Origin: Jimgerdemannia flammicorona
Lineage: Eukaryota
Assembly: GCA_003990765.1 (NCBI GenBank)
Contig: RBNJ01000179.1
Location: forward strand, 1 to 37,777
Length of the DNA: 37,777 bases
Direction of reading: 5' to 3'
The notes under the pieces: generated by a model
Databases searched by the model: none
Told to the model about the DNA's origin: nothing
What the model saw: the letters and a program-made list of their open reading frames with translations, nothing else
In this document: in pieces, positions 4,811-30,539 of the stretch
How the letters are laid out: the number at the start of each line of letters is the position of its first letter
How positions within the stretch are numbered: position 1 is the stretch's first letter
Position numbers and translations under genes: made by a program

Positions 4811-6640
4811 AATTAATATATATTAGTATTCTCAGAGTTTATCTTCTATACTTCTTATATAGATACTAATTTCTCTGATATTGTATACAAGATAAGATCC
4901 TTCTTATTTAAACTCTCATTTGGTAGCAAAGTTTGTTTCAATTATATTTTTTCAGACTAGTACTTGATTTTCAATCTCAATCTTTTGATTCTTTTACTTC
5001 TGATTATAGAACTTCTTTTATCTTTTCTGAGTCTTGATTATCTGAGCTCTGACTTGATTATATAATTATTCTGCTCTTTTGAGAAGATCTCTGAGATTCT
5101 GATGATCAGAGGATCTGGTTTTCTTAACAAATATTTTCTCAAATAGTCTTTATTTAATAGAGGTAATAGGGGTGATCTTAATTTTCTATTAGATCTCAAG
5201 TAAGCAGAGATCTCAGGTAATAGAATTAACTTGAGAAAGTCCTTTCTTGATAGTCTGGTTCATTTATTCTATCATATGTATCATTGATTTGGGAATAGTA
5301 TAATATGATTTATTTGAAGTAGATTTTATAAATTCAAGTATAACTTATAACTATATTATTGATAAATTCTGTATCTTGATCAGAAATAAGTTCTTCAGAG
5401 GCTCTATATCTGAGTATAAGGTAATAGAGGAGACCAACAATAATTAAGACATCAGCAATTTCTACTGAGAAAGTTTTGGGCTATATATATAAAGTCAGAT
5501 ATTCTATAAATACTAAAATATATTTATTTCTCCTTAGTATAACTGATAGAAGTCTGATAACATCTACTTCCCATCTCTGAAGAATATTGAATAGTGATCT
5601 AATTAGTTATAGTAGTGCTTAATAGTTCTTCTTTTCTTAATATACTAGATATTATATTTTTTAAGTATATCTCTGACTTATATTCTGAGGTTGAGTCAAT
5701 GTTAATTTGTTATTCACAGCTTTTCTTCTATATTTGCCTATTCTTGATGGGCTTTTTAGTGCTCTTTTCAGATAAGGTCTTCTTGCATTTTGATGGTTAT
5801 AAGAGCTTTCTTTAGAGTATAGTTTCTTAGTATATTCTTCTTCTAATTTATTAGAAGTGGTAAATAAGTATATCTCCATTATTGTGAGCTTTCTCTAATT
5901 TGTGAATAATAGTGATTTTGTAATCTTATAAAATAAGGATCTAGTAGGTAAAAATTCCAGTAAGTTTCTTATAGTTAAATAGTTATTTAAGAGTAGTATA
6001 GTCAGTGTTCAGAGTGAACTTTTTTCAATAAAATAGTGCTTGAACAGAGTGACTGTCCATATAACTGCAAGATATTCTAGTTTGGTGCTACTATAGTTAA
6101 TTTACTACTGATTTATAGTTTAGCTTGAATGAGTTATCATATAATACTACTGATTAATTCTTCTTGAGCTTAAATTACTCTAAGGCTATCATTGAAAGTA
6201 TCTGTGTATAAGCTAAATGGCTTCTGCAGATTGGATTGTACAAGGATTGATACTATAGTTATATAGTACTTAAGTTCTCTAAAGTAGTTCCATCTATTAG
6301 TATAGTACTTCTTTTAAGAGAAGAGTTCAAATTAGAGTAGTGATTTGGGCAAATTCTTTGATAAATCTTCTATAGTTGGATACTAGTATCAGAATTAATA
6401 GTATTTTCTTTGAAGTCTTAGATACTGGCCAGTTGTTGATCTTCTCAGTTTCTTTAGATCTGTATGAGATTTTTTTTTTTAGAAACTATAAATCAAAGAA
6501 ATTCAAGTTTCTGTTTTTCAAAGTAGTATTTCTTAACATTGAGTCTCAGAGAGTTCTTATAGATGAGCTGAAAGAATTCTTCTAGATAGTGTCGGTATTC
6601 TTTGAAATTTACTAAATAGATATTAGAGTTATCTATATAT
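4800..6640 (-). pseudogene. pol: A2 pol remnant: RT C-terminus, RNase H, integrase
   Basis: Aligns to A3 29480-31278; many stops. Confidence 0.8.
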
Positions 6641-7096
6641 TGTTATATAGTGGTCGCTGAGTTCTTCAAATATGCCAGATTCTCTACAAGATATATCTCT
6701 TAGACTAACTCAAGTTTGTTATAAGCAAGTTCTTATTGGAGTGCCTTTCCAAGGTCTTATAGTTCTCAAACTTCTTATCTTTAAACTGTCTTGTAATATT
6801 TTTAGATTGCTTGCAAGGAAGTATATGTATTGCACTAAGTAGACTGACTTTATTTCAGTGAAAATAAGAGGGGTATTTATACAAAATATAAATTCAATGG
6901 TTGCTAAGATATAAAGCTAAATATAAATTCCAATAACTAAGAGCCCATTCAGTTCAAAATAACATTATTTTGGGTTATATGGCATGAGAATTATTTCTGG
7001 ATCAAAATAATTCTAATGCTTAAAAGATCATGCTATTACTGAAAACTAATAATAAAATTATGGTGTTATTTTGAGTCAGCCACAACCTTGCTGCCA

Positions 7097-8424
7097 TGTC
7101 TTCTCCAAATGCACCACTGCCTCTTCTGCAGCAATTCACTGCTGTCCTCTGTGACATCCAGCCTGGTCTCCATAAACTCATTCACTTACTACATTTCCTC
7201 ATGCTTCTTGCCCACATTGCTGCTGAGTATGCACTGCCACTATATGGAAAGCAGCCATATAATATGTCTCCTCTATCAGATACTCTTTATTTTTCAAGTT
7301 GCTATTTTTAATAAGAAAACTTATCAATTAACACACCATCATCAGGTGCTTGCTACATAGAGGAGTTACTGACAGGAAATATACAATATATTGATAGTGT
7401 TTTGCAGATGCCCCTTGTCACATTTCAGCACCTATGTTATCTTTTAGAGGTATTGCTGAACAGATTGCAATCTTCCTTTGGGTTGTTGGACACAACACGT
7501 CTAACAGACAGACAATGGAGTGCTTCCAGCACAGTGGGGACATGATCAGCACAATCTTCCACTTGGTTCTCAAGGCATTGGTGTGCCTTACTTCTGACTT
7601 TGTATATCTGCCACATTCAAACAGCTGGCCTCCTAAAGTGAGGTAAACTCAAAGTTTTTTCCTTACTTCAAGGACTGCATTAGTACACTCAATAGTTCTC
7701 ACATTCTTGCTTTGATGTCTACCAACTTAGTTACAGCATACAGGAACAGAAAGGAGTTCACTTCACAGAATATACTAGTAGTCTGTAATTTCAACATGAC
7801 ATTTTCTTATATTCTGAGTGGCTGGGAGAGTTCTGCACATGATGAGTGAGTCCTTAAAGATGTACTCAGCAAAGACCTTTTTATTCTGGAAGGCAGGTTC
7901 TATCTGGAAGATGCTGGCTATGGACTATTGTATCAAGTCCTTACTCCCTACCAATACATTCAATACCACCTTCATGAATAGAGAAGTACTTGCATCAAGA
8001 GAGGGCAGAGGACAGACTGTCAGAAGTTTAATTTTATTTATTTTTTTTATTTTTTACTAGACAACTGCCAATTTGTGGCTGCAAATGAAGGAAGAGCTCT
8101 TCAACCTCAGACATACAAGCCTGAGAAATGTGGTGGAGTGGACCTTTGGAGTGCTAAAATACTGCTTTCTGATCTTGAACACACAGATCATATATTCACT
8201 AGAAATACAAGCAGACCACCCACATGTATTGGCTTGCCTGCATAACTTTATCATACAACAAAACAGCCAGGATGATATGTTCTTCCAGGAAGAATTTGCA
8301 TGAGACTTAGAGGAGTATGAAAATAGGGAAGAACATTGGGTTGAAGAGGATGATGGTATAAGTGAATGGCAAGATGAAATTGCCTGTCAAATGTGGGAAA
8401 ATTATTGGCAACACCAACAATAAT
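7097..8424 (+). pseudogene. Harbinger DDE transposase (HARBI1/DDE_Tnp_4-like), degenerate, probably intron-containing
   Basis: Motifs EQIAIFLWVVGHN..FQHSG, FKDCI, YRNRKG, GWESSAHD, YLEDAGY, ELFNLRHTSLRNVVEWTFGVLK. Confidence 0.88.
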
Positions 8425-8469
8425 AGGTATATCACATTGATTGTACTTTTTTATTAAATCACATGTATT

Positions 8470-9662
8470 ACTATTATAATTGTTCTGAAGTATCTTTATT
8501 TATATTGTTAATCTCCTCTTTCAATCAAATATTGTACACCTCTCCAGCAGGCATTGTACAGAATATTGTTGCATTTACTTCAGACTTCATAATACTATAA
8601 GCTTTGGCCATATCCATACTGTTTAATATATTACTGTACTCTTTATGGAGAGCAAGAATGGCATCTCAATAGATACTGGGGCTTGTCAGTGGCAGTGCCT
8701 TTGCAATATCAGCCAGCTGATTGATGGTAGAGGCAATTGCCAAGCCAGGGTTGGTTCACTCATGTTTTTTGAGAGTGGTGTTGCAGGAGGGAGTAGTGTT
8801 GTGGGAGGAAGTGGTGGTAGAGGAAGTGGTGGTAGAGGAAGGTTTGTTGGTGTTGGAGATATTATGAGAGGTATCTTGAAGCTCATCTTCATCTTCAGAG
8901 AGTATCTTATTTCAAATTTGATGCTTATTGATGTTGGAAGAGGTTTGAAAGGGGATTGATGATTAGTGCTTGTCTTCATCTTCAGAGGGTATCTTGGTCT
9001 GTGTGTGATGCTATATAACCTGGCCTTGTGTAGTGGTGTAATGGCCAGTTGCCCCTATTGTCCCAAATAGCTCATTAAAATCATTGTACTGAGAAAAGAC
9101 TCTATTGTGGAACATTTTTGCCTGGGGGTACTCCTATAAATATAGAAAAAATTAGAAAAGGTGATATCCAGCTTGCAGAAAGCCTGAATAATGAGTATTT
9201 GCACCTTTAAGTAATCATCCCACACTTTTGAAGGAGCTTCAACTGTTTGCACCTCCTCATTCCAATCAAACCCACTCCTGTTCTTCAGGTGGTTGAATGT
9301 ATCATAGTCTGACTTAAATGACTGATGAAACTTCAACTTGATCTGGCTGATGTTGATCAGCTGGTCAAAGTGTTCTGAGCATTATTTAGCTATTGAGACC
9401 CATGAAACCATTTTCAGTTCTTTTTCCATATCAAACTGTATCAAGCAGCTGGGAGATCAGGTAGTTTTCCATTGTCAAGTCCTATTAGAGGCATGGTGCC
9501 TTCTTATTTCCTTTGGAGTTATTTTTGGCAGAGGTAGTGGGGTTCATGGAGATAATGGGTTCATGGGGACAAAGATGAATACAACAGGAGGTAGTGGAGG
9601 TAGTAAAAATAACAGTCAAAATACAGGTCCAGACCTGTATTTCAAAATAAGGAGTTATATGT
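8470..9662 (-). pseudogene. Harbinger-associated Myb/SANT-like DNA-binding protein, degenerate
   Basis: LKNRSGFDWNEEVQTVEAPSKVWDDYLK matches the SGFGW...W..Y motif; GT..AG intron ~9134-9204; boundaries approximate. Confidence 0.78.
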
Positions 9663-9997
9663 GATTTTGCCTGATATTGTGTTCTAATGATGATGTTGTA
9701 CCAAACATGTTATAATTTTGATATGATATTCAAAAATAATGTTATTTTGAAATGAAGGCATTATTTGCTAAACTAATACAACTGAACAGGCCCTAAAATA
9801 AAATGCCAGAACAGAAAAAACTGCTAAGTTCCAGAGTCAGCACTGACAGTTTTACAGGTTCAGGATGCTGGTATAATTTCAGTAGTATAGGTTCAGGATG
9901 CTGGTATAATTTCAGTAGTACAGGAAAATGGTACTGGAATAATTCAGTATAATATCAGAATGCTGGTGGTGGAATAATTCAGTATCACTAAAGGACT

Positions 9998-10753
9998 TTA
10001 GAGCAGAATGTTCAAGACTATAAAGGCTTCATCCTTATCAGAGATCAGAATGTCTTCAAAGGAGATGAGGTCTACAAATTAATCATTGTCATATAGGTCA
10101 CATGTTTTGTATATATCATATGTCTCACATATGTTACATAGGATGATGTCATTGCCAATGACATTATCACATTTAGTGGTGGCAGGAACAAGAAGGTCTC
10201 AGGCTCTCCAGTCTATGAGGTTCTCTTCCACAAAATAGGGGACAAATGTGAGATCTTGGAGAGGTCTAACCTGGAAGCTTGGGCCTTGGAATATTGAGAT
10301 CAATCCTTACAGAAATGGGTCTGGGTTGTTCTGAAGGATGGGATGCCAGAAGTCTTCTACTTCATCACTGTCAAGGGTGATAGTGGACTGGACTTCTGTA
10401 GCCACCCTGACTTCTAGTGTATTGATATAGCAGGCTGACAGGTCACTGAAATCTGAGACTCTAACATACTCTAAGTTGGGGATCAACCATGGTATATGCC
10501 TGAAGATCTGATGGATCTTCTTGGCTATTTTTGTTTCATATATATCCATGAGAGTGGCATCTTGTAGCTCTTGAGTGCTGGCCTGTGGGAACTCCTGGCA
10601 GAGGAGGTTTACTATTTCATACTCCTGCTACATTTGGAGGTATTTGATAGCAATGGTGATCCTTGTTTCCATTTCATAGTAATAGAGAATATAATGATAA
10701 GAGTCACCAGTACTCAGGTTGATACTAGGAGTCCTTCTTAAGTGGGTCCTCAT
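9998..10753 (-). pseudogene. LTR-encoded accessory ORF of element B (3' LTR copy), 251 aa, unknown function
   Basis: Same length and frame as 17178-17933; internal stops are sense codons in the other copy. Confidence 0.72.
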
Positions 10754-11082
10754 GGCTTTTCTGATGTCTTAGAATATCCTTTCTTCAACTGAGATGCCTT
10801 GGTGGTTCCTTGATCTTGAGATTTGATGAGCAGCAGATATTTCATTTGTGGTAAGTCTTTGAGCTATTTTGGGATTAGTGGGTTTTGTTGGTTATTGCTA
10901 CTGCAGTTCTTTGATCCTTCTTTTATATTTCTCAAGATACCTATACTATGGTCACAATGACTTACAGTTGGTCATTATTGCTCATCTTATATACTGTATG
11001 ATCTTCTTATACTCTGATCTGGTGGCTTGTAAGAAACGGCTGTCTCCTGTACTGATGTCATCATTCTGGGGTCACTGTTACA

Positions 11083-11095
11083 TCTTCCTCCTAAA
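11083..11095 (-). promoter_or_regulatory. Polypurine tract of element B
   Basis: Minus strand TTTAGGAGGAAGA directly before the TGT of the 3' LTR. Confidence 0.8.
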
Positions 11096-11449
11096 TAAGG
11101 ATCTTCTTAAATGTTCTTATTCATTAGTCTAGTCCTGAAAAATTTGCTAATCCCATAACCTCTGACAAAGGATCAAAAAGTGGTGTTTATGGGCTGGCAT
11201 CTTCTCTTTATATTTTGGCATGATGGTGAAGGGTCACTCCCTTCATATAGAGCAAGGATCTAATTCTGATCTTGACCAATTAGTTGATAGTTTGAACTCC
11301 TCTGACTTAGAAAGTCTCATGGATGAGTAGTTGTTGGTGCTGTATCTCTTAGAGAATGGTCCAGACAGATAGCCTACTGATCATGAGACATACTGTTATG
11401 ATTCACAGACTAGAACCTCATGGGCAGTCACCATGTTTTGCTTCTCTTG

Positions 11450-12520
11450 TATAGATTCATGGTACTTCTTGAGTCTATTCCTATATACCATGATAAGCAG
11501 TATGGTCTCTGAGATTTTTCTAAGTCAGAAGGTAGTTCTCTTGATATCTTGCATGTAGAAGGGTCCTTTCCATTTGGGCTCCAGTTTTCACAATCATGAG
11601 ACTTCTACCATATTTGATACAGTAGGACCTTTTCTCCAATTTGGATGGGTTCTAGGGTCTTGTGATTCTTTTCTGCATTTTTCCTTATCAGTACTTGTAA
11701 CTTGATGATGTAATCTTCAGCCTTCTTCCTGATTTGGTATAGTCTCTGGATTTCTGCATCAATCTGTCTTCAAGTTAGGTCTAGATTTGTAGCTGAGGTT
11801 CCATCAGAATCTTCTACTCTGAAGAGCAGTTCTCTTGGGGTAAAGTGTGTGCTCTGTAACTGTATGTCTCATAGGACAGAGAGGGCAGTTGGGAGGTAGT
11901 TATCCCAATTCTCATATGTCTCTGAGATCTTTGCCAGGATGTTCTTGAGGGTCTTATTGGTTCTCTCTGTCTGTCCATTTCATTGAGGGTGGTACACAAT
12001 AGTCTTGATGTGCTGAATCTTGTATTTCTGATACATATATTATCTCATAAAATCCATTGACAAATTCTGTACTGCAGTCTGTTGTGATTTGCTTTGGTGT
12101 CTTGTAGCAGCAGATGATTTCTTGGTGCAGGAAGTCGGCTATAGAGAGGGTATTGGCTTCTTGTAGTGCTCCTGCTTCTATCTATTTCATAAAGAGGTCT
12201 ATAATAATAATAATATAGCAGTTTCCTGATAGTGTTACTGGTAGTGGCTCAATGATATCCATTGTGATGTGGTGGAAGAAGATAGACTCAATTCTTGATG
12301 ACCTGAGTACCTGGTCTTGCTGATCTTATTTCTGTTTTTGGCACTTGTCATACTCTTTGACTAATTGGTGCAGGTCTTCTTTCATTTTGGGCCACTATAT
12401 AGTTCTTCTTGCCTTATTATATGTATTGATTCCTTCTAGGTATCCTTGCTTGTGTACTTCCTTCATTACTTGATACTTCTTGTATTAGGGTATTACTAGC
12501 TTTCCTCCTTTTCTGAGTAT
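11450..12520 (-). pseudogene. int: Element B integrase (HHCC remnant, DDE core, GPY/F-like tail)
   Basis: WPKMKED, MDIIEPLP, ITTDCSTEF, TLNEMDR.R (YHPQ.NG..ER) region, EPKWKGPF. Confidence 0.82.
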
Positions 12521-12671
12521 AGTGTTGTCTAGTTCAAACTGTTCCCAAGTCTGGTTGATGATGGTAATTGTCCAGGGTTTGAGGTGGTTGGGCATCTTCT
12601 GCTGCCCAAGGTAGCTGATTAATCCATAGTATAACTTCTTATTCATGTTGAATAGTCTTGATGGGGGTGTT

Positions 12672-13920
12672 TCAGGGTTTCCTTAAGAGTGCATCAGCAT
12701 TGGTATTGGTTCTTCCTAAGTGGTACTTAATAGTACAATCATACTCTTGCCACCTGTAGATCCATCTGGTATATATTCCTTTGGGGTTCAGAGTGTGGAA
12801 TAGCCAAGCAAGAGTGGAATGGTCTGTTTGAATAGTGAAGTATAGTAGTAGAACTTGTCTACTGTCCAAACTACTGCTAAGCATTTAAGCTTATATGACT
12901 TATAGTTTTGTTCTGCTCTATGAGTACCTTGGCTTGCATAGGAGATGACATATTCATATCCATCTTTCTTCTGAGCTAGGACTGCTCTAAGTTCTATAGT
13001 ACTTGCATCTGTCTGCAGGATGAATTCTAGGTTCCAATCTGGTCTTCTAAGAATAGGTGCTTGGGTCAATCTGGTCTTGAGTTCATTGAAGGTTTCTTGA
13101 TATTTCTTGATATATTCAAATTTGGTTTCCTTCTTCAGTAGCTCATAGATAGGTGCTGCAATATTGGAGTATCCTTTGATGAATCTTCTGTAGTAGCTGG
13201 TCAGTCTAAGGAAGACATGGACTTCTGTAGTTGTTCTGGGTCTCAGGTAGACTGCAACAGCCTCAATCTTATAGAGTCTGTATGGATTCTGGGCTGGTTG
13301 ATGAGGTATCCTAGGTAGGCAATTTCTTGAGCTGTAAACTTGTATTTCTTGGGCTTGATGTAGAGGCCATACTCCTTGAGCTTTATGAGGGCTAGCTGTA
13401 TGTGGTTGATATATTCCTGTGTAGTGTTGCTGAAGGTGATTATATCATCAATATAGATAAAGAGCTATTTTCCAATCTTGTTGCTGAAGACTCTGTTCAT
13501 TATTTGCTGAAAACTTGCTTGGGCATTACACATTCCAAATAGCATTTGCAGGTAAATATAGGTGGTATCAGGTGTGATAAAGACTGATTTCTCACTGGCA
13601 TCTTGAGTAAGACCAATCTGATGGAAGCTTGAGAATAGATCCAAGATGGTGTAGTATTTGGCTTTACTTCCAAGAGTGGTAAGGATTTCTTGAATATTAG
13701 GCAAGAGCTGCCTATCCTTCTTGGTGATGGCATTGAGCTTCCTGTAGTTAATGCAGAGACTTGGTGCAAACTCTTTAGGCTTGCTTCCTTTCTTTGGGGT
13801 GAGGATAATGGGTGAAGCCCAGGGACTGATAGTTTGCTTGATGATTCCAGCTTCTTCTATTTCCTTGAGTTCTGCTCACAGCCATTCTCTGTAGGCAGGT
13901 GGTATAGGTCTGGCTTTCTG
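12672..13920 (-). pseudogene. pol: Element B reverse transcriptase and RNase H
   Basis: SPWASP, LCINYRKLN, LDLFSSFHQI, MLFGMCNAQASFQ, YIDD (~13445-13456), FILQTDAS, TDHSTL, NADALLR. Confidence 0.92.
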
Positions 13921-14141
13921 GTTGATAGGCTTTATATCACTAGTATCAACTTCATGATAGTACTTGGGTTCTTGATTGTGGATATCCCTGAAGTCTATAG
14001 CAAGTACTTCATTCTGGTACAGGATCTTGAGAAGTTGTTCTTCCAGGAGAACATTTTCTCCAATGGTATATGTGTGCTTATTCTGGTCCCTATCTTTCTT
14101 GTACTCAAGTTCAGTAATCTTGGTGGTGGCATAGACTCCTC

Positions 14142-14522
14142 TTCCAGTAGATCCAAAGTCTTGTTCTCCTCTCTTAGTCTTGATGAGTTCAATGGCTTCA
14201 GTGATCTTGGGCTTCTTGATTTTGTAGATCAGCATCTGGCCAATCCTGTTATGCTTCTTGACTTCAAATGGAATAGTGGGATTGTGATTCCTGACTATAA
14301 GGAAGATCTTACCAGTGTAATCAGGGTCAATTAGTCCTCCTTCAACTGAGATTTCACTTTTGGCCAGACTGCTCCTAGTCTTGATAATTCTGACATGGTT
14401 CTCTGGCAGCTTGACTCCAATTCCAGTGCCAAGTAGGGTGGTGGTCTGTAGTTCAAGGGTAGCATCTTAAATGCTGACAAGGTCCATTCCTATGGCTCCT
14501 CCAGTCTTGTATTCTGGGATCT
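14142..14522 (-). pseudogene. dut: dUTPase domain in element B pol
   Basis: AIGMDL, TRSSLA, GLIDPDYTG, RIGQM, RGEQDFGSTG: all five trimeric dUTPase motifs. Confidence 0.92.
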
Positions 14523-14879
14523 TGGCTTCAGGATGAAACTTCTTAACCTTGAGGTGATGTCTGATTCTTGTTCCTCCTCATTATCACTGTTAGCTTGAAG
14601 TTGTCAGCTTCTTCAGCTTTCCTTTTTGCTTCAGTGACTTCTTGCTCATGTTTCTGTTGGCAGATTTTCCTGACTTCGCTGATACAGGACCAGCAGTTAT
14701 TCAGGTGTTCAGAGCAGTATATCCTAGTACCATATGGGTATCTTCCTTGAGGAGCATTGCTATTAATGATCTTGTTGTACCACTGCTCATCTGTGAGCTT
14801 GGGTGTCTTGTTCTTATTCTTGTTCACTGAGTGCATGAAGACTTCTGTGTCCTCTTCATCTCCTTCCTCCATGTCTAGT

Positions 14880-15260
14880 AGAACTCCTTTGTAAATATTG
14901 ATAGAGACTCATACCTTTCTTCCTCTATAGTTGATCTATATTTTCTGAGCATTGAGATCAATGATGGCCTTGGCCTTGTAAAGCCATTAGTTGTCAATGA
15001 GGATATCATAGTTGGTGGTACTTGTAACAATTACATCTACTGGAATGGTAGCTCCTCCTATCTTGATGGAGACTTCTCAGATTTTGTCAAGGGGGGTAGC
15101 TTGTATACCATCTGCTGTAACATAGACCATCTTGGTGGACTCTTCAATGTCCCAGCCTAGATGATCAATTGTCTTCTTGCTCATGAGGTATCCTCTAGCA
15201 CTAGTATCAATGATGGCATCAAAGATACAATCTTTGATCTGACATGGGGTATAGGCTGAT
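14880..15260 (-). pseudogene. Element B aspartic protease
   Basis: AIIDTSA (DTG-like) and DILIDN (ILG-like). Confidence 0.78.
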
Positions 15261-15376
15261 GTCTTGTACTGGTCTTTGGATTCTTTACCTGAGTCTTCTG
15301 ATTCTTCCTGTATATTGTAAGCTTCTACAATCTTGTACTCTTGATTCTTGGCAGTAGTTGCAAGTCCTACTCTCAA

Positions 15377-16620
15377 CTACTGTCTTAAGGCAGAGACTTT
15401 GGTTAGCTGTCCAAAAGTAGCATTGACCTTCTTTACCTTAAGGTCATTGTAGATATCATAGTGATAGATCTTGGTCTTATGCAGCTTCTGTTCCTTCTTG
15501 CTTTTGCTTTCTCCTGAGACTGGAGTAGTGCCTTCGATGATTTGGTGGGCAGCTTTATCTAACTCCATGTCTTGATCAATCTCCTTGGTTTGGGTCTTGC
15601 TTTTGATAGTGACATCTGGGGTATTCTTTGGTCTTCTAACTGGCTTGCTGTTGCTCTTCTTGTCATAGGGCTTGGACTGGGTTCTGGTTTCTTTAGTAGC
15701 AGGGTAGAATTCAAGCTCCTTATAGTATTCATCATCATCAGTATCACCAATCTCCTCAATGACTACTGCATTGGTTTGTTCTCTGGTTCTGCTAGCATTA
15801 CTTGGTTGGGCTTTGTATCTTGTTTCAGTTATGTAGTTATTTGCAAAGTGGCCTTCTTCTCCACATCTGAAGTATGTGATATTGCATTCTTCTATAGCAG
15901 TGCACTGGTCTCCTGTTGGCACTTTGGACTTCTCTAACAATATCACTAAGGTGTTCAGTCATCTCAGCAAACTGCTTGGCAAGTTTCTCCACTGGGTCAG
16001 CTTAGGCTACTTTAGGGGTAGGTGGGGTTGGTTGTCTGTTTACAACTGTAGTGGGTATGATACTAGTTGGCTTTGATAGTTCCATCTTGATACCAGTTAT
16101 TTTCTCTATTGAGTGTTCAGCAGGGTGTCTGGTAGTCTAATATCTCTGTACAAAGACCACTTTCTGATCAAGGGTCAGTGTAGCTGAGGTAGACTGGATT
16201 GCTAGGGCAATTTCAGGGTGAACTCCTTTGAGGAAGGTTGAATCTGCTATTTGTTCCTTGAGGGTATCATTATAGTCAGCCAAGATAATCTGGTGGTAGA
16301 TTCAGGTATAGAATGAGTTGGGATCTTCACTGAGTCCCTGGCAGATAGTATTGAGTTGATCCTTGAGAGCTTCCTTGATCTCTTCAGTATAGTATGTTGT
16401 TCTGAGGAAGGTCTTCATGTTGGCAAGTTTGGCTACACCATTATCAGCAATAGTGACTACATTGAACTTGTCCCTGATAGGTCCTCTGAGGCTGACTGAT
16501 AGAAGGGCCAATTGTGTATCCACACCAAGAGCTCATATGGCAGTGAATTGTTCAAAGTCTTCAATAAAGGTCAGGATTGACTCTTCAGTAGTATATCTAT
16601 AGAATGTAGAGGGAGGCATT
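15377..16620 (-). pseudogene. gag: Element B Gag with CCHC knuckle
   Basis: (C>Y)FRCGEEGHFANN(C>Y); QGLSEDPNSFY capsid homology; in frame with PR through one TAG. Confidence 0.82.
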
Positions 16621-16721
16621 TCTATCTTATCTTGAATTCTTATAGGAGTGACTCTTGTAGTCAGAGTAGTTGTGGTGATTGTTTGTTTTTTAGCTTGAAA
16701 GTGAGGGATTCATCTTGAATC

Positions 16722-16739
16722 ACCAGCCAATGGACACCA
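16722..16739 (-). promoter_or_regulatory. Primer-binding site of element B (tRNA not identified)
   Basis: TGGTGTCCATTGGCTGGT begins 3 nt after the LTR end. Confidence 0.65.
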
Positions 16740-16742
16740 AGT

Positions 16743-18262
16743 TGTCACATAGTGGTCGCTGAGTCCTTCAAATATGCCAGATTCTCTTCAAGGTGTATCT
16801 CTTAGACTAACTTGAGTTTGTTATAAGTAAGTTCTTATTGGAGTACCTTCCCAAGGTCTTATAGTTCTCAAACTTCATATCTTTAAACTGTCTTGTTATC
16901 TTTTTAGATTGCTTGCAAGGAAGTGTGTATATTATACTGAGTAGACTGACTTTATTTCAGAGGAAATAAGAGGGGTATTTATACAAAATATAAATTCAAT
17001 GATTGCTAAGATATAAAGCTAAATATAAATTTCAACAACTAAAATAAAATACCAGGACAGGAAAAACTGCTAAGTTCCAGGGTTGGCACTGATGGTTTTA
17101 TACAGATTCAGGATGCTGGTATAATTTTGGTGATACAGGAAAATGGTGCTGGAATAATTCCATATCACCATAGGACTTTAGAGCAGAATGTTCAAGACTA
17201 TAGTGGCTTCATCCTTATCAGAAGTCAGGATGTCTTTGAAGGAGATGAGGTCCACAAATTTGTCATTATCACATAGGTTGCATGTTTCATATATATTGCA
17301 TATCTTGTGTATGTCACACAGGATGACATAATTGCTGATGATGTCATCACATTCAGTAGTGGTGGAAACAAGGAGGTCTGGGGCTCTCCAGTCTATGAGG
17401 TTCTCTTCCACAAAATAGGGGACAAATGTGGGATCTTGGGGAGGTCTAACCTGGATGCCTAGGCCTTGGAATACTGAGATCAATCCTTGTAAGAATTGGT
17501 CTGGGTTGTCCTGAAGGATGTAATATCAGAAGTCTTCTACTTTATCACTGTTGAGGGTGATAGTGGACTGGGCTTCTGTAGCCATCCTGGCTTCTATTAC
17601 ATTGATATGGTAGGCTGACAGGTCTCTGAAATCTGAGACTCTAACATACTCCAAGTTGGGGATCAACCATGATACATGCCTGAAGATCTGATAGATCTTC
17701 TTTGCTGTCCTTGTTTCGCATATATCCACAGGAGTGGCATTTTGTAGCTCTTGCGTACTGGTCTGTGGAAACTCCCAGTAGAGGAAGTTTTTTATTTCAT
17801 ACTCCTGCCATATTTAGAGGTATTCAGTAGTAATAGTAATCCTTTTTTCCATTTCATAGTATTAGAGGATATAATGAAAAGGGTCACCAGTACCCAGATT
17901 GACACTAGGAGTCCTTCTTGAGTGAGTTCTCATGGCTCTTCTGATGTCTTAGAACATCCTTTCTTCAACTGAGGTGCCTTAGTGATTCCTTAACCTTGAG
18001 ATTTGGCAAGCAGCAGGTATTTTATTTGTGGTAAGTCTTTGAGCTATTTTGGAATTGGTGGGTCTTATTGGTTACTGCTACTGTAGTTCCTTGATCCTTC
18101 TTTTATATTTCTCAAGATATCCATACTATGGTCACAATGACTCACAGTTAGTCATCATTGCTCATCTTGTATACCATATGATCTTCTTGTACTCTGATCT
18201 GGTGACTTGCAAGGAAAGGCTATCTCCTATGCTGATGTCATCATTCTGGGGTCACCATTACA
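16743..18262 (-). repeat. 5' LTR of element B (1520 bp)
   Basis: tgtcaca...ttaca; direct repeat of the left LTR. Confidence 0.94.
17178..17933 (-). pseudogene. LTR-encoded accessory ORF of element B (5' LTR copy)
   Basis: Track ORFs 17178..17483 and 17526..17729 share a frame that extends to ATG 17933 (possibly 18158). Confidence 0.72.
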
Positions 18263-21200
18263 ATATACTATCTAGTAGTAGTAGATTAGTGAGCCATAGA
18301 CTGAGTTTATCATTCTCTGGAAGGTTGGGAGTATATTGTAGATTCAAAACAATATCCAGAGATATTCAAATATTTTTTCTAGGAAAAAAAAAACCGTTTT
18401 CTGAATGTTCTTAAGATCTTGTAAAATCCGGTAAAGAGATCTATACTGCAGAAGTATCTGATATCTTATAATTGATCTAGGAGATCATTGATTCTAGGCA
18501 AGGAGTAGGTATCATTTCCTGTAACTGAATTGAGCTTTCTGTAATCTACACAGAGTCTCTATCTTTCTTTCTTAGATATAATGAGTATAGAGCTGGTCAG
18601 AGGCTAGTAGAGAGTCAAATAACTCTATTATCTGAGAGTTTTGGATTGTATTCTTTTTTAAATATCTTTAGATAATAGGGTATTCTATAAGGCTTTGTCA
18701 GATGGGTGTAGTGTTTTCTGTATTTATACTATAATAGTATAATAGATTATATAGTAGGTTGTTATAGTCTATAGTAAAGATATCCTGGTATTTTTGAAGG
18801 AGTTTTACTAGTTATTATTACTACTGAGATATCAGTTCTTCTCTAATATTAGTAGAAGGCTTTAATTTCCCCTGGATTACAGAAAGGCCTTTCTTTTCTT
18901 CTGAGATCTTCTGCTATTTCTCAATATATTTAGTTTATAAACTTCCCTATCTATTCAATTAAGATAGAGCATCAGATAGTTTATAATAGTTTCTTTCAAT
19001 TGAATGAGGCTTTCCCAGCTTTAGTTAATTGCTCAAGAGTATATAGAGTTTATCTTATTAGAAGATATATATTCTTCTATATCAAGATTCTTGATATACT
19101 TATTAAGTTTAAAGTAGAAATTTCAGAAATCAAGTTGTGTAAAGATTTCAAAGATGGTCTGCTCTCCTAGTTTTAAAATGAGATTCTTGTATAGCTTAAC
19201 TAGTTGGCAGTATATTTATAAGCATTCTTTTTGAAGTAGTAACCTAGAGGAGATGTATTTCTTTTTTATCTATGCTTCTAAATTCTATAGTTTATCTTAT
19301 ATCTTAAGTCAGTTTAAGGATCTCTTATAGTTGAGGAGTCTTAACCATTATGAAGATTACTTATATAATTTTTTGTCTTTTATAGATTTAATTCTACTCT
19401 ATTCTACTATTGTTAAAGATAACCTTGATTTTGTCTATATATCCAGAGTCTATTATTTCTCCTTTTTAGTTATTCCTTATCTAGTAAGTCCAGATCTTGA
19501 GGTCAATTAGATATAAGTTCTCTTGGATTGCTATATAGCTTATTCTATACTAAGCACTATTATTCTTCCAAGCTTATATAAGACTATAAAGATTATATCT
19601 CATATCTTTCTAATGAGCTTTTGTTAGATGTTTAGTTTTGAAATTTAACAAGATATACTGGACAATATCCTTACTGAGTTTAGATTATTCTTAGACTGAG
19701 ATTTCAGTATATATGTATGAGCTCTCAGGCTCTAAAATTGAGGTGTAGCTATCTGGCTCCAGAGAGAGATCTCAGAGATAATTGATTTCTCTTTTTTCCA
19801 TAGGATCTAGGGCTTCTATAAAGTTGATGATATCTTTTACCCATCTTTAATAGATTATATATCTGATAAGAGCCAGAATGTCATCTTCTAGATTATAGAT
19901 CTTGAAAGCCTCCTTTGTTAGTTTCTTGGCATAGCTTCTTCAGATAAGCTCTGTTATCTCCTTTCTTTAGTATATATAGTAATATCTTAACTAAGGTAAA
20001 TCTTCTAATGTAGATAGTTTCCAGAGTTTGAGTGTTTTTCATAATTACAATATTCTATTATTGAAAAATACAGTTCTTAGTTTTTAACTTCTTACTGTCT
20101 TTAAAATTAGTATTCATTCTTATTATAAGTTGAAGAAAGGGTAGCTAGGGGCCATACTTCTTTTTGAGTGAAGTGGTCCTATCTATTGACTTGTCTTTTC
20201 AACATAATAGTAATTTCTTAGTAGATAGTTATCTGTACAATTGTGATTAGAGATCCTGGTCTGCAGTATCTCTATCTTTCTTATTAGTTCAATAAGTATC
20301 ATTAATAGCAGTAGTCTTGGGGAGAGTGGAAGACCATTTGATGCTAATATCTTTCTAGCCAAAAGGGCCTTTTTTGATATATTTCTTATCTTTAATCAAT
20401 GGCAACTATTCTTAGTCCTTCTTCAGTATTCCATAGGTTATTATCTTTCAGCAGTATCTAGTGAAAGTTATCTCAGAAGATGGGTTTAGAAGTTCCTTCT
20501 GTTTAAGAACTTCTAGTTCAAGGATTTCTTTATCAGATAATTCTTAATCTCAGATTGCTTATACTTTTATAACTTCAGTTGTAGATATCTTCAGAGAGTA
20601 GTTATATTTCTTCTTTTCTTTTCTATACTATGAGCAGACTATATTAGTTAAATTTTTTATTCCAATAATCTTAGAGGAATGTTCAGGACACTTGTATCTT
20701 TTGAGACAGATAGAGTATGTTTTAGCTTATCCTGCAATGGCTCTGATAATAATAGAGATAGTATCTTTGACCCATATATTATCTTCTGGCCTATCACATA
20801 CTAGATTGATTTATAAATTGAGTCTGGGGTCATTTTCATATTCAGATTCTTCTTTTTTTCTATAGTAGATTCTTTACTACTGATATACTCTTTCTAGATA
20901 GTGACCTTCTTCTTCTTTGATTGCTTATAGCTAATTATCTTAATTCTGTACTTCTTTTCTCTATTATCAAATTTGAGTACCTATTGGTTGATATCAATAA
21001 CTGTATTCATTTTCTTCATCTAGTTGGTACTAAGAATTATATCATAAATAACAGCTTCAATGACAATAGCTTTTATAATAGAGAACTTAATATGTTTAAA
21101 AGAGATAGTGATGTTTTATACTTCTCCATGAGGTTGAGTTTATGCTCTATCTGCTACTATGATACTGAGGTTAGATAGTCTATCAATATATCTCTAAAGA

Positions 21201-22042
21201 GTATCTAGGAATTTTTTGGCAATAATATGGATAGCTGCTTCTATATTAATGAGGATTTTTGCCTTCTGTCTCCTAATATCTCTATACAGATATGTAATTA
21301 CATATCTCTCTATAGCTTAGATGTTAGTTAGTATTAGTTCTTATTATGGGATTAGAACTCAGCCAGTGCTAGATCTGATAGTTCTCAATAGTTTGTTTCA
21401 AACTCTGACAGATATCAGTAGTAGGAATTGCAGAAGAGAGACTTCTATCTCAACTTCTTAAATATTTTACCAGACTTTATTGTAGATATCTCTGAGTATA
21501 GTTTTTGGAATATACTTTTTCTTAAGCTTTGAAACTATAGGCTCTTATTCTTCTTACTCTATTTATTTATCTTCTGATAGTAGTTTATTTGTTTCAGAGA
21601 TAAAAGGTGAGAGAGATTAGAGAGGTATTGCAACTTGCTCTTTTTTGTCTTCTTTATCTTCTTCTTAGATAATTCTTCTACTAGTCTTTCTGGATGGTCT
21701 TCCAATTAATATCTTTCTTTTTTCAACTAGGTAGACTGTTTTTCTAGTAATGACCTTGATTTGATACATATAAGTCTAAGATACTGTAGTCTTTACCATT
21801 ACTTTTTTCAAAGTCTTCAATAGGATGAGCTTTAGTCTTCTTATACTGGATTGCCTTTTGATTTAGTAGTTCTGAGTTTCTTCAATTACTTCTTCTGTAA
21901 TTATATTTGGTAAGTTAGTATCCAAACTATCTACAGTAGAAGCATTGGACTTAAGCTCTATCTCAGACTAAGTATCTTCCTTTTTCTTATACTGATAGCT
22001 CTTATTATCTCTGAATAGATAGTCCTAGTTTTATCATAGTAT
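18263..22042 (-). pseudogene. pol: A2 gag-pol remnant: knuckle, PR, insert, dUTPase, RT N-terminus
   Basis: Aligns to A3 31278-35080; knuckle remnant CFYCR.FGY at ~21915-21946; dUTPase remnant ~19265-19660. Confidence 0.8.
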
Positions 22043-23162
22043 TGTAATGTGCCTGCTCAATGAAGACAAATTACAAGGATGGGGGTTGGTGTAGTTCGGC
22101 TTGAGCCCATAGTTATTTTATCAAAAAGCAACAAAATGTTCTAAGATTCCTGAGGTCCTTGGTGTTTAGTAGTATAATAGTCAAAGCTGGATATCTATGA
22201 GTAATTTGTATGTCAATTTTCTAATTGGGATGGTTCTCTAAGTATAGCAGCAGTTTGTGTGTGAATGGGTTTCCCTCTTAGGTCAACTGGGAATTGGTAG
22301 AATTTCATATTTAAATTCCTATCTTACTACTCCAAACCCAATCCTCCCATCCCTTCATGAATAATAAATTGGATGAATATATGTTTATATATTGGGCAAA
22401 TGCATGCATGAGGAAAGTTCTGTCTCAAATGCATTATATCAGTCAGTTCGAAGAACCCAATATAAAAAGGTATACAAGAGAGAGGTGGGAGTGAAAACCA
22501 TATGGTAGTGATTAAGTGAGATGGAAAGTGGTCAGGATGTTAGCAAACAATAATTACATAATTGCTAATTATAAATGCATATTGCCTAATCAAGTAATAA
22601 ACATCTTTAATATACTATCCCTTCAGGATCCTTTCATTAAATCTCCATCTTACTACTCTGAACCTAATCCTCCTATCCCTTTATGAATAATAAATTGGAT
22701 GAATATATATTTGTATATTGGGCAAATACATATATGAGGAAAGTTCTGTCTTGAATGTGTTGCATCAGTCAGTTCAAAGAACCCGGCTCAAAGAAATTAG
22801 ATGAGCTTACATCATGGTCATAGGGTCTACATAGAGCATAGTTATTAGGATCTGTATTATATTAATGCAATTTGTCCATGGTCTAAGGCCCTGCCCAAGT
22901 AAGGAGAGATAGCCTGCCCATGGTCTTCAAATACTATACTACCTGCAATCTTGAGACTCAGCATTAGAGCATATGTCCTATCTGGGTCTTTGTGATCTTA
23001 GGATTCTGCATCATAGGACATACCAAACCATGGTCATGGAAACTTCACTGCCTCACAATCTTGAGCCTCAGCACAAAAGTAGGTCCTATGTGGGTGCTCA
23101 TAGTGAAGAGTTCTACATAGATGGCTGATAAAGATTGGATATAATAGTGGTGATTTGTATGA

Positions 23163-24229: not shown

Positions 24230-25700
24230 GAGAAAGGACAATGCATCAGCAATAGCATTAAGATGAGAGGGAATAAATGATACTCATAATTGGAAAGAGT
24301 ATGAGGCCCCCAGAAAGAGAAGTTGGTGAAGGAGTTCAAGGAGTTTTAGGTTATTAGAGATGCAGGAATTGATGCAGAACATTGTGGTCTGATTGTCAAT
24401 CAGGACATAGATGCAGTGGAACTGCCAATGGGGGCCCCACATAGCTATAATGATGACAATGGTATATAATTCCTTAAATTAGATATATTTGAGAAGGAGA
24501 TCCACAGGCCAGAGGATAGAGAACTATGCTCTATCAAAAAATACTACAAAGTCATGGGTGCCACTGATATCAGTCCAGAATCAATTATCAGTGACCTCTT
24601 CCCATGGGGTAATAATCATGACTCTATTCCACAGTGTGAGGAATTGTAACCACTAATGTAAGTCTGCAAAAAAATTGGCAGTCAAGTTGATATGGTGATC
24701 AGAGTAGGAAACAGAGGTCGAAATATCAATAAAACAGCAAAGGAAGAGTTGGCCCTCTGGAATGACCTGACAAGCAAAAGAAAGGGACCCAATGAGTGAA
24801 AGGATATCCCATTTGGTGGCAGTTGCCCAAATAGAGGTTGACCAGGTGATGAGGTTGGTTATTGTTATGAGAGTAGATTGGATCTTGCCCTCAGAAAGAT
24901 GTGCCTCCATGGTAGTTGTATCAATCTCAAAGCCCATAAACAGAAGACAGGTAGAGGGGCCATCTACTTTTTTGTCCTGCACAGAAAATCCAATAGCATG
25001 GCAGATAGAAAGGAGAAGATAGAGTGGTGTTGTAGCTTGAGATAGGTGGCAGGCCCCAAAAGTATCATTGATATACCAAATGATATCATTCAGGCCATAG
25101 TATTTGAAAAGCCATTTGAGTATTTTACCAAAGACATTAAAGAGGAATGGAGATGAATGTAGTCTGAAGGGAAGGAATCAGTCAAAATAGAAAAGACTCT
25201 GCCAGTGGAAGCCTAGCAGTTCCCAATCCTCTGGATGCACCAGAATATATCAGAAGGCATTTGCCAAGTTGACTTTGAACAGTAGGGTATCTCTGCTGAG
25301 ACATTGTACAATATCCAATACTTGATCAAAGGTAGCATACTTGAGAGTAAAATCATCAGGCAATATCCTGGCATTTACCAATGTACTATGAGACCAAGAG
25401 AGATGATAAATGTGGTGCTGATTGGTGGATCCTTTCTTTGCCACTATACTCAATAGAGATGCCCAGAAATTCAGAAATGGAGGGTAGAAGAAGGGGCCCA
25501 CAATATGCCTGACTGCAACTTTTGTTATAATGTCATCAGAGATCACTTGAGGAAAAGCATGGGCCAAAGGTAGATTATACCATGACTGAGGGTGGTATGG
25601 GCCTACAAAGTCTATATAGACACTATAGAATAGAGCAAGTAAGATAGTAGATAAGAGATGGTAGTTGGGGAAGTCTTGAAATATAACTGCCCAAACATTG
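24230..25700 (-). pseudogene. DIRS-type RT and RNase H
   Basis: KVNLANAF, WYINDTF (YxDD remnant ~25063-25078), KKVDGPST...FMGFEIDT, IGSLSF, WTDISG, NAIADALS. Confidence 0.88.
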
Positions 25701-25949
25701 GCTCACAAGGGAACTATAGAAAGAGGGAGAATATCTAAAATATGTTTGGCAGAGGTCAGGGAAGTAGAGAGAGGAAAGGTAAAGATGGTGTTTGGAGGTT
25801 GAGGGGGTGTCATTGTAGAAGGGATGGAAGGGAGGACTATTATCAGAGCTTTCGATATACCCATAGAATCCTATAATGTACATTGGAATATAGCATATAC
25901 CTTTCTACAACAAGAATACTAATGATTGTAGAGACAACCCATGTGAGTG

Positions 25950-28906: not shown

Positions 28907-28950
28907 TCAGCCCCCACTGAAAGATAGTCTGTCCCAGACTGTTCTTCAGT
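28907..28950 (-). promoter_or_regulatory. PPT-like tract (AGTGGGGGCTGA) and adjacent inverted repeat of A3
   Basis: Abuts the 3' LTR; homologue at 4605-4647. Confidence 0.65.
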
Positions 28951-28957
28951 TATCATT

Positions 28958-29461
28958 CTAATAAGCATAAGCAGCTTCTGCATCTATATCTGTTCCATCA
29001 TCTTTATTGTCTGTATAAAGGTCACTCCATTCTAAAGGCTCCTCTTCTTCTTTAGAAAATAGGATCTCAACTTGGTGGATAATACTAAGGTAGGTGGGTA
29101 GGGTCATCTTTTAGAGATCATTCAGAGAGAACTAGGCCTGGATTAAAGCTGAAGGGTTTCATTTGTAGATTGTATATAATCTTTCTTCAGCAGTAGTATT
29201 CCTTCTGTTCAGGTCAGTAGTATTGCAGACATAAGCCAGGTCTGGGAGGGGGAGATTCTGCAATTGTTCTCCAATTGCATAGTATGTTTACAGCTGGTGG
29301 ATCTGGAGTAATCTCTCAGCCAGAGTGAGGTTTTCTTGATGAACCTGGATTCTCTGAAGGTATGTTCTATTGAGTTCTTGGAACTGTGGCAGGGGAACTG
29401 ATAGGGCTTGAAGAGAACTGAGGACAAGGGTCTGGAGATGGTTGTCAAATCTCTGGTTCAT
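28958..29461 (-). pseudogene. Accessory ORF between integrase and PPT in family A, 167 aa, unknown function
   Basis: ATG 29461 to TAG 28958 without frameshift, 4 internal stops; 5' end MNQR.D..LQTL.LS.LQ.L conserved in A2 (~4685-4746). Confidence 0.65.
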
Positions 29462-29479
29462 GGTGTGGAGAAAGATATA

Positions 29480-30450: not shown

Positions 30451-30539
30451 CCTCAGGACACCCATCTTCTAGTTTATTGAGGCTGATGGAAAAGTACATC
30501 AATATTGTTGTGAGCTTTCCCTACTTTATAGATGATGGT

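Follow-up and report, generated by a model that had tools for sequence, protein, structure and literature searches.

A probable orphan gene, decayed in two copies, inside the long terminal repeats of a dUTPase-bearing Ty3/Gypsy retrotransposon

The window analyzed here is a 37,777-nt stretch of Jimgerdemannia flammicorona DNA (contig RBNJ01000179.1). It contains a retrotransposon, element B, with a 756-nt reading frame inside each of its two long terminal repeats (LTRs); the features are listed in Table 1. Between the LTRs, Pfam identifies the order gag-protease-dUTPase-RT-RNase H-integrase on the minus strand, with the integrase after the RT, and every domain of this gag-pol contains stops and frameshifts. 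The paired LTRs (82-92% identity), TG..CA ends, a target-site duplication, a site resembling a primer-binding site, a polypurine tract and this domain order place the element in Ty3/Gypsy (Metaviridae). The ATAT duplication taken alone is weak evidence because the site is AT-rich. A later insertion split the 3' LTR; at the site where this LTR took the 2853 bp, the 5' LTR is uninterrupted and contains TAA once. Matches of the RT-RNase H piece, at only 36-50% identity, come from plants, an arachnid, Mucorales and from metagenomes. Element B is an old, dead Ty3/Gypsy insertion with a dUTPase in its pol. No solo LTR, tRNA or Rfam match was found within the window.

Table 1. Coordinates of element B, its LTR gene copies and associated signals in the window
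Feature	Position	Strand	Evidence or remark
5' LTR of element B	16743..18262	-	1520 nt, TG...CA ends; self-BLAST and MAFFT alignment to the other LTR
3' LTR of element B, upstream part, carries gene copy 2	9794..11082	-	81.9% identity to 5' LTR over 1290 nt
3' LTR of element B, downstream part, separated by later insertion	6641..6940	-	91.7% identity over 301 nt to 16742-17042
Inserted 2853-bp element with terminal inverted repeats, within 3' LTR	6941..9793	.	TAA duplicated at 6938-6940 and 9794-9796
Target-site duplication ATAT of element B	6637..6640 and 18263-18266	.	Border reading
Candidate primer-binding site of element B	16727..16739	-	Begins TGG, 3 nt past 5' LTR
Polypurine tract of element B, AGGAGGAAGA	11083..11092	-	Adjoins 3' LTR; same junction in soil contigs extending past 18262
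Internal region of element B, broken gag-pol	11093..16726	-	ORF pieces and Pfam
gag CCHC piece	15380-15958	-	ORF piece
Protease piece	15080-15376	-	ORF piece
dUTPase piece	13879-14466	-	Pfam PF00692, E 7.9e-18; between protease and RT pieces
RT piece	13468-13875	-	Pfam RVT_1, E 2.9e-10
RNase H piece	12791-13444	-	Pfam RT_RNaseH_2, E 1.1e-26
Integrase piece	about 12050-12490	-	Pfam Integrase_H2C2, E 1.9e-09
LTR gene copy 1, pseudogene, 251 codons and stop	17178..17933	-	tblastn with P0003: 69% identity, E 1e-110
LTR gene copy 2, pseudogene	9998..10753	-	tblastn with P0003: 69% identity, E 2e-108
Remnant of family N-terminal extension	17934..18020 (copy 1); 10754-10840 (copy 2)	-	tblastn with P0004
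TATA-like block 1, AATATAAAAG	18100..18109; copy 2 10920-10929	-	About 80 nt 5' of family start codon
TATA-like block 2, TGTATAAATACCCC	16972..16985; copy 2 6870-6883	-	3' of gene; 16-nt exact block in common with L001
AATAAA, poly(A)-signal-like hexamer	16951..16956; copy 2 6849-6854	-	16 nt past block 2; putative role

The LTR is also found in soil metagenomes. Six soil-metagenome DNA runs are listed as sharing sequence, each with 0.04-0.12 of the sampled words, and no RNA run is among those listed. Contigs from four runs of four studies (1361, 347, 46 and 101 contigs) end at 18262, and the cover falls to about zero past this edge of the 5' LTR. In some contigs the sequence continues past the edge into the internal region, on its polypurine-tract side. 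The first-pass annotation had treated the repeats as LTRs of a Gypsy element, which is confirmed by these contig ends together with the terminal nucleotides, target-site duplication, primer-binding-like site and polypurine tract. The majority letter in the soil contigs changes TGA to TGG at 17526 and TAA to CAA at 17816, and sense is thereby regained at two of the three stops of copy 1. Among the soil-contig indels listed, 11 of 12 are of 1 nt and fall in 16817-16992, outside of the gene; the sole one within the gene is of 3 nt, at 17214. Contig joints that skip 40-100 nt occur in one contig each at a depth of 2-5 and were excluded from the analysis. The soil-contig cover is thin at 17078-17347, which is taken as no more than consistent with the variable tail.

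The 756-nt frames of the two copies align codon for codon with no indel, in agreement with the first-pass annotation. Copy 1 has three internal stops, in codons 24 (TAA, 17864-17862), 40 (TAA, 17816-17814) and 136 (TGA, 17528-17526). Copy 2 has four, in codons 42 (TAG, 10630-10628), 149 (TAA, 10309-10307), 185 (TGA, 10201-10199) and 225 (TAA, 10081-10079). None of these seven stops is common to both copies. The earlier reading had located the stops of codons 136 and 149 correctly, each matched by a sense codon in the other copy, but the total is three plus four rather than two. An alternative genetic code was rejected as an account of the in-frame stops, since they are not common to the copies and relatives have sense codons at these positions. 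The remaining five frames of the same stretch contain 9-25 stops each; therefore, a stop-free ancestral frame is far more than chance would give. From the end of the frame to that of the LTR there are 435 nt, and the 3' LTR contains the frame a second time. In the alignment of the two LTRs, indels of 35 and 31 nt start immediately past the stop codon. The 329 nt of LTR on the 5' side of the ATG are likewise free of indels, so that their absence is not specific to the frame.

Further copies of the gene were not found in the window, where all tblastn matches of eight family members below E 0.01 fell in the two LTRs. The dN/dS between copy 1 and copy 2 is 0.47, which is within the neutral range of 0.36-0.86, and the window copies by themselves carry no signal of selection. 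Since their divergence is neutral, the two copies are pseudogenes. Both were open when element B inserted and decayed neutrally afterwards to three and four stops.

In intact relatives the frame begins 29 codons farther 5', at a conserved MP..R..QT start. Residues 1-271 of the family member P0004 are matched by tblastn at 18020-17181 and 10840-10001. The family start codon is ATA in both window copies, and one TAA in the extension is common to both; therefore, the frame of the parent element began at the ATG chosen in the first-pass annotation. Since the parent element already carried the N-terminal extension in closed form, either the extension is dispensable or the parent gene was impaired by then. 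The proposed 251-aa protein stands as a description of the window frame, which has 251 codons; however, the intact protein of the family has 271-342 aa and the window copies are dead.

Homologues were obtained by a database search (7 matches among 125 candidates), an exhaustive search of 1.84 billion representatives (5 matches of 138-342 aa) and a profile search (11 matches). All of them were called as genes on short contigs from metagenomes, i.e. as open frames; P0021 sits on a contig of 4848 nt and P0010 on one of 2375 nt. The family consists of about four subfamilies with identity down to 27-36%, and five of its members are full-length (271-342 aa). The MP..R..QT start recurs in the subfamilies along with conserved motifs of the core, and indels in the acidic C-terminal tail preserve the reading frame among members. 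A scan of metagenome contigs gave one locus (L001) out of 80 pattern matches, and none of the 65 pattern matches in viral contigs is a relative. L001 is collinear with the LTR, with TATA-like block 1, the gene, TATA-like block 2 and AATAAA in the same order. Outside of the window, the association of gene and LTR is seen at L001 and in short soil contigs only; the more distant subfamilies (P0020-P0022, P0143) are represented by protein sequences.

The DNA for the selection test comes from one outside locus, L001. Over 190 ungapped codons the two window copies differ from it by 65/48/102 and 61/45/96 at the first, second and third codon positions. With synonymous sites saturated in this comparison, pN/pS is 0.36 and 0.35 in the gene frame and 1.03-1.37 in shifted frames; for the frame as a whole, the values are pN 0.31 and pS 0.73. 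Together with homologues in diverged relatives, the in-frame pN/pS of 0.36 upholds the proposal that the LTR frame is a protein-coding gene. In related elements the gene is intact and, by these comparisons, under purifying selection. Since the repeats are true LTRs and the coding frame lies inside them, the gene is carried twice per insertion.

The frame is therefore probably what remains, after decay, of a genuine orphan gene restricted to one lineage, a gene located wholly inside the LTR of a dUTPase-bearing Ty3/Gypsy family and kept intact (271-342 aa) by purifying selection in related elements. The several stops in each window copy, and an indel-free stretch that reaches into 329 non-coding nt upstream, would also be expected from a chance open frame or from conserved non-coding LTR sequence that is merely stop-free. 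Such an origin is extremely improbable, however, in light of the third-position excess, a pN/pS of 0.36 in the gene frame only, the 9-25 stops of the other frames, the diverged relatives with intact frames of 271-342 aa and frame-preserving tail indels, and the single listed soil indel inside the gene, which is of 3 nt. LTR elements capture host sequence, and the gene could be a piece of a host gene that is carried as a passive passenger with no benefit to the element. A passenger would not stay open for so long, though, as to keep the same start, core and tail in about four subfamilies at 27-36% identity with in-frame selection. No longer or differently built relative occurs among the 1.84 billion representatives, whose five matches have 138-342 aa, and host capture is very unlikely.

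The protein has a polar arrangement of charge. In the five proteins profiled, the first 60 residues have a net charge of +1 to +8 and the last 90-110 residues one of about -15 to -27. The first AlphaFold model was poor (mean pLDDT 49), and the models, based on an alignment of 17 rows, are overall of low to middling confidence. The N-terminus is basic and rich in arginine. The models predict a helical core at residues 14-164 (block pLDDT 58-95, and at least 67 in all blocks but one) and disorder in the long acidic tail, which contains short hydrophobic motifs. No transmembrane-like stretch, i.e. no run of at least 18 hydrophobic or small residues, occurs in the five family members examined. Pfam gave sub-threshold matches only for the two window copies (E 0.066 and 0.21) and two single-member matches only for 14 family members (E 0.026 and 0.088). 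A sequence profile search of the PDB had no match at E <= 1. At E <= 0.001, Foldseek found no match in the PDB (best 0.22), and the fold search of the viral library BFVD was also negative (best 0.023). VIA-align against 48,161 chains had a best Z of 5.0, which is in the non-specific range for helical models, and the ESM Atlas had no interpretable neighbor. The matches listed by the fold searches are all weak and of a generic helical kind. The product does not seem to fit an envelope protein or an enzyme. Its charge pattern would suit a soluble nuclear protein that works in trans for the element as an adaptor or regulator; a transactivator, an RNA-handling factor and a counter-silencing factor are examples. 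This role is suggested tentatively, as is the accessory or regulatory one proposed in the first-pass annotation.

The LTR also contains conserved signals on both sides of the gene. TATA-like block 1 is identical at 10 of 10 bases in both LTRs and L001, despite the saturated synonymous sites, and palindromic TGA(C/G)TCA-like motifs are present on its 5' side. These motifs would presumably suit an enhancer-promoter at the 5' end of the LTR. The whole frame lies inside the LTR; its placement in U3, and the U3-R border, would follow from the positions of block 2 and the AATAAA. From the sequence, there is nearly an even chance that the conserved TATA-like blocks and the AATAAA around the gene form a transcription unit contained within the LTR. 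Block 1, about 60-80 nt 5' of the start codon, would then drive an mRNA of roughly 1.1 kb that ends at the LTR's own AATAAA, just past block 2, and block 2 would be used for the genomic RNA. The protein could be made from either LTR and, in principle, from a solo LTR as well. In a broader and more speculative form of this proposal, each LTR may be a full gene cassette with its own promoter, the orphan protein and the LTR poly(A) site. Every LTR, including solo LTRs, could then express a trans-acting factor serving the family, perhaps an LTR transactivator or a suppressor of host silencing, with stop or read-through at the LTR poly(A) site as the switch between mRNA and genomic RNA.

Two other arrangements of the transcripts are to be weighed against a gene cassette within the LTR. 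The conservation of block 1 equals that of block 2, and the TGA(C/G)TCA-like motifs lie 5' of block 1, as might be expected if block 1 were the genomic promoter and the gene lay in a very long R instead of U3. The gene would then be a first cistron, similar to an ORF0, repeated at the 3' end of the RNA; transcripts stopped at the poly(A) site would be mRNA and those that read through would be the genome, and block 2 with the AATAAA may be readable as a bipartite poly(A) signal. However, R would be about 1.1 kb, which to our knowledge is far longer than any known R region, and synthesis of the genomic RNA would have to bypass the 5' copy of the AATAAA. A TATA block, 16 nt and then AATAAA also resembles the classical arrangement of a U3 end, and on balance this possibility is rather unlikely. 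Retroviruses express 3' genes from spliced subgenomic mRNA, and the gene in the 3' LTR is located 3' of pol on the same strand. It may accordingly be the 3'-terminal cistron of the genomic RNA, expressed like retroviral env- or nef-type genes, with block 1 irrelevant; but the strict conservation of block 1 at a fixed short distance from the start codon, in subfamilies whose synonymous sites are saturated, would be left unexplained, and this route is less likely still.

Retrotransposon LTRs are usually seen as non-coding control regions, and solo LTRs as inert scars or stray promoters. A selected gene that lies wholly inside an LTR, which is an unusual gene location for a retrotransposon, would alter this picture for the lineage. 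Such a gene would double at each insertion and remain after recombination has removed the other parts of the element, and it could be expressed with no dependence on gag-pol. LTR-borne accessory genes, known from a few vertebrate retroviruses, would extend to a Ty3/Gypsy element that has no env. The gene would also represent a new family of orphan proteins, built of a basic head, a helical core and an acidic tail, and its part in retroelement biology is directly testable. The literature covered contains no report of a Ty3/Gypsy LTR with a gene of this kind; most subscription journals are outside of this coverage and an earlier description is possible.

The closest parallel in position is the sag gene of MMTV, a vertebrate retrovirus, which encodes a superantigen in the U3 of the LTR. 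As in element B, the frame is complete within the LTR, is present twice per provirus and is on the gag-pol strand. The sag product is a type II membrane glycoprotein, whereas the gene of element B encodes no membrane segment, has a product that resembles nothing in the sequence and fold searches, and is carried by a Ty3/Gypsy element with no env. HIV nef and the foamy-virus bel/bet genes are 3' accessory genes that start in the internal region and overlap U3. They resemble the gene of element B in that they encode small non-enzymatic accessory proteins at the 3' end with overlap of the LTR, but the gene described here is confined to the LTR from start to stop codon, and a conserved TATA-like block of its own precedes it. 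The env-like ORF3 of errantivirus-type Gypsy elements, which lies 3' of pol and encodes a membrane fusion glycoprotein with a signal peptide and a TM segment, is also different, since the protein of element B has no transmembrane stretch and is predicted to have a soluble helical core and a disordered acidic tail.

Among plant Ty3/Gypsy elements, the ORF0 of Retrosat2, RIRE3 and RIRE8 is located between the 5' LTR and gag, outside of the LTR, according to the available text of PMC3485330. The likeness, from the same portions of that source, is that of an orphan extra protein that changes faster than pol and belongs to one retrotransposon lineage (PMC3485330). The difference from the plant ORF0/ORF1 leader proteins (Retrosat2, RIRE3/8 and the Ogre type) is that the gene of element B is inside the LTR. 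The available parts of two further sources describe dUTPase-bearing Gypsy elements in basidiomycetes, Tuber and bdelloid rotifers, with the dUTPase between protease and RT in PosPlaTy3-5 and in the rotifer elements Juno, Vesta and TelKA (PMC2864245, PMC5408684). The dUTPase of element B has the same placement. With an identity of only 36-50% between its RT-RNase H piece and any named protein, element B is not assigned to those families here. The rotifer dUTPase elements bear varied extra ORFs, with ORF3s on the 3' side of pol that are env-like or encode an esterase or an exonuclease; in these accounts, as far as their available text extends, the extra ORFs lie 3' of pol, whereas the extra gene of element B lies in the LTR (PMC2864245, PMC5408684).

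In element B, a Ty3/Gypsy retrotransposon, the long terminal repeat (LTR) carries a real protein gene that has been under selection, as the first-pass annotation had proposed for a 251-aa product. This is supported by diverged homologues with open reading frames and by the substitution pattern against one of them. Among 5.8 billion proteins searched by a word index, 7 of 125 candidates matched; phmmer, run exhaustively against 1.84 billion representatives, found 5 matches (138-342 aa), and a profile search found 11. Every homologue is a gene call on a short metagenome contig, which is evidence of open frames and not of expression. The homologues form about four subfamilies, with identity down to 27-36%, that have in common an MP..R..QT start and conserved core motifs. 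They also have a variable acidic tail, with indels that preserve the reading frame, and an LN(F/I)-type motif close to the C-terminus is conserved in most of them. The full-length members (n=5) are P0004 (271 aa), P0011 and P0013 (323 aa each), P0021 (342 aa) and P0143 (325 aa). In place of a family consensus or a repaired frame, the analysis relied on natural intact homologues and on X-read-through translations.

DNA was obtained for a single relative, the 1345-nt contig L001 (1 among 80 pattern matches), so the selection test rests on one outside locus. Over 190 ungapped codons, the two window copies differ from L001 by 65/48/102 and 61/45/96 at the three codon positions. The codon-position bias that the first-pass annotation had named as its own test is thus present, as a third-position excess. 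In the proposed frame, pN/pS is 0.36 and 0.35; shifting the reading of this alignment by one or two bases raises it to 1.03-1.06 and 1.31-1.37. Taken over the whole frame, pN is 0.31 and pS 0.73, the latter being saturated.

The 756-nt frame is present in both LTRs at the expected positions, and its copies align without any indel. This is not specific to the frame, since the 329 nt upstream also lack indels; indels of 35 and 31 nt start directly past the stop codon. The two examples given earlier of a stop in one copy that is sense in the other are correct, but the stops had been under-counted. Copy 1 has three (codons 24, 40 and 136) and copy 2 has four (codons 42, 149, 185 and 225), while the remaining five frames of the same stretch have 9-25 each. 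None of the seven is common to both copies. Stops in the parent would mostly persist in both; therefore, the frame was open at the time of insertion. In intact relatives the family start codon is 29 codons upstream of the ATG chosen in the first pass. That position reads ATA in both window copies, and the N-terminal extension contains one TAA stop common to both and one more stop in copy 1. For the parent element, this leaves either use of the internal ATG at 17933 or an N-terminus that was already impaired.

The window copies themselves are dead. Of their 756 sites, 114 differ between them (99 transitions, 15 transversions; 47/28/39 by codon position), with a dN/dS of 0.47 (Nei-Gojobori). Neutral simulations (n=1000) run with the same transition bias gave a mean dN/dS of 0.57 (95% range 0.36-0.86), and 23% of runs were at or below 0.47. 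Since the observed value is within the neutral range, the divergence of the pair since insertion has been neutral, as is expected of LTRs. Under neutral decay, 114 changes should create about 3.0 +/- 1.6 new stops; the seven observed are somewhat high, yet fit the excess of CA/TG-to-TA changes. Across the LTRs, 135 of 151 differences are transitions, mostly CA/TG versus TA, and CpG is nearly absent (2 and 1 sites where 45 and 43 are expected, at 16743-18262 and 9998-11082). The decay looks like methylation-driven or RIP-like C-to-T change. The window alone cannot tell whether the frame is a gene; the evidence for that lies outside it.

Short contigs from four soil metagenome runs, belonging to four studies, also cover the LTR (1361, 347, 46 and 101 contigs per run at a likeness of at least 80%). 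Cover falls to about zero past 18262, the LTR edge. Contigs crossing this edge go on into sequence that matches the window's internal region on its polypurine-tract side; therefore, the gene-bearing repeat is also an LTR in other copies. At most positions of difference from the soil majority, the window has A or T in place of G or C. Among the 40 of 252 differences listed, the majority restores sense at two of the three copy 1 stops (TGA to TGG at 17526, TAA to CAA at 17816). Of 12 indels listed (there are 16 further ones), 11 are single-base changes at 16817-16992, outside the gene, and the only one within it, at 17214, spans 3 nt. Few contigs cover 17078-17347, the part coding for the variable tail.

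Features of the window, by position
Feature	Position	Strand	Remarks
Element A, gag CCHC	1-513
Element A	3-6640 and 18277-22012		contains element B
Element B 3' LTR	9794-11082 and 6641-6940	minus	split by later insertion
Later insertion	6941-9793		2853 bp; terminal inverted repeats, duplicated TAA
ORFs in later insertion	8627-9661		no Pfam match
LTR gene, copy 2	10753-9998	minus	in 3' LTR
dUTPase domain	13879-14466	minus	PF00692, E 7.9e-18; between protease and RT
Element B 5' LTR	16743-18262	minus
LTR gene, copy 1	17933-17178	minus	in 5' LTR
TGAGTCA, TGACTAA and TGACATCA	18138-18154, 18233-18240	minus	upstream of first TATA-like block
150-nt direct repeats	22490-22639, 27656-27805		90% identical, 5.2 kb apart
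Long ORFs flanked by 150-nt repeats	24656-27780	minus	up to 243 aa; no Pfam match
Element A, second copy	28370-36432		diverged, 71-86% identical
T-run	36436-36500	plus
RT fragment	37264-37776	plus	RVT_1, E 1.1e-05, below cut-off; runs off window's end

The window is a pile of nested retroelements, and searches of it yielded no host gene, tRNA or Rfam RNA. The backbone of element B is a Ty3/Gypsy element with a dUTPase. Its LTRs end in TG..CA and are flanked by a 4-bp ATAT duplication; a TGG-starting site lies 3 nt past the 5' LTR and a purine run, AGGAGGAAGA, adjoins the 3' LTR. Between the LTRs are, in order, broken pieces of gag (CCHC), protease, dUTPase, RT, RNase H and integrase. Even the nearest named relatives of its pol share only 36-50% identity. 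The insertion in the 3' LTR has the plus-strand ends GAGCCCATTCAGTT... and ...AACTGAACAGGCCC; such ends with a 3-bp TAA/TTA duplication are typical of PIF/Harbinger-type transposons. At least three old insertions are nested in the window, with the second copy of element A further right. The 150-nt repeats and the long ORFs that they flank may be a third, unclassified element, and the T-run and RT fragment at the right end may belong to a further retroelement.

Two TATA-like, non-coding blocks show strict conservation when the window LTRs are compared with L001, although synonymous sites are saturated. The first, AATATAAAAG, precedes the family start codon by 80 nt in the window and by 58 nt in L001. 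The second, TGTATAAATACCCC(TC), is about 190 nt downstream of the stop codon and is followed after 16 nt by AATAAA in the window. Judged from these motifs, the second block and AATAAA would form a classical end of U3, with this TATA box serving the genomic RNA and the LTR gene lying in U3. Since AATAAA would be just upstream of the genomic RNA start, only its 3' copy would be used. The first block could instead be the genomic promoter, giving an R of about 1.1 kb with the gene as a leader cistron, but this is unlikely. Expression from a spliced subgenomic RNA is also quite doubtful, and slightly more so. In the favored arrangement, with genomic RNA starting at the second block, the gene would have a promoter of its own in the first block, and an mRNA of about 1.1 kb would start and end within one LTR. 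Solo LTRs might also retain the gene, as the first-pass annotation proposed. Of the motifs upstream of the first block, TGAGTCA and TGACTAA are in inverted arrangement and are mutated in the 3' LTR, while TGACATCA is kept in both LTRs; all three resemble AP-1/Gcn4 and CRE-type bZIP sites.

Five proteins from across the subfamilies were profiled. The first 60 residues have a net charge of +1 to +8 and, in most subfamilies, are rich in arginine; the net charge of the last 90-110 is about -15 to -27, and this part contains short hydrophobic motifs. No membrane-like stretch was found in the five. An AlphaFold model from 17 sequences has a helical core at residues 14-164 (block pLDDT 58-95, all but one at least 67) and a disordered tail, with an overall mean pLDDT of 56.9 and pTM of 0.49; an earlier model was worse. 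No match was found among Pfam families, in a PDB sequence search, or with Foldseek against the PDB and a viral structure library at E <= 0.001. With VIA-align the best Z was 5.0, a value that counts as non-specific for helical models, and an Atlas search gave no useful neighbour. An envelope protein and a recognisable enzyme were both rejected. Composition alone suggests a soluble, probably nuclear product, most likely an adaptor or regulator.

Vertebrate retroviruses have genes that lie inside LTRs or overlap them: MMTV sag is located in U3, and U3 is overlapped by nef and by the bel genes of foamy viruses. In the literature searched, which covered few subscription journals, no report of a gene inside a retrotransposon LTR was found. 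dUTPases in Gypsy elements are described as rare and have been reported for basidiomycetes, Tuber and bdelloid rotifers (PMC2864245, PMC5408684). ORF0 of Retrosat2, RIRE3 and RIRE8 is upstream of gag (PMC3485330) and the varied ORF3s of bdelloid rotifer elements are downstream of pol (PMC5408684), both in the internal region, whereas the gene of element B is wholly inside the LTR. The LTR gene would be an accessory ORF of an LTR retroelement, and what appears to be new is its position wholly inside the LTR and its protein family.
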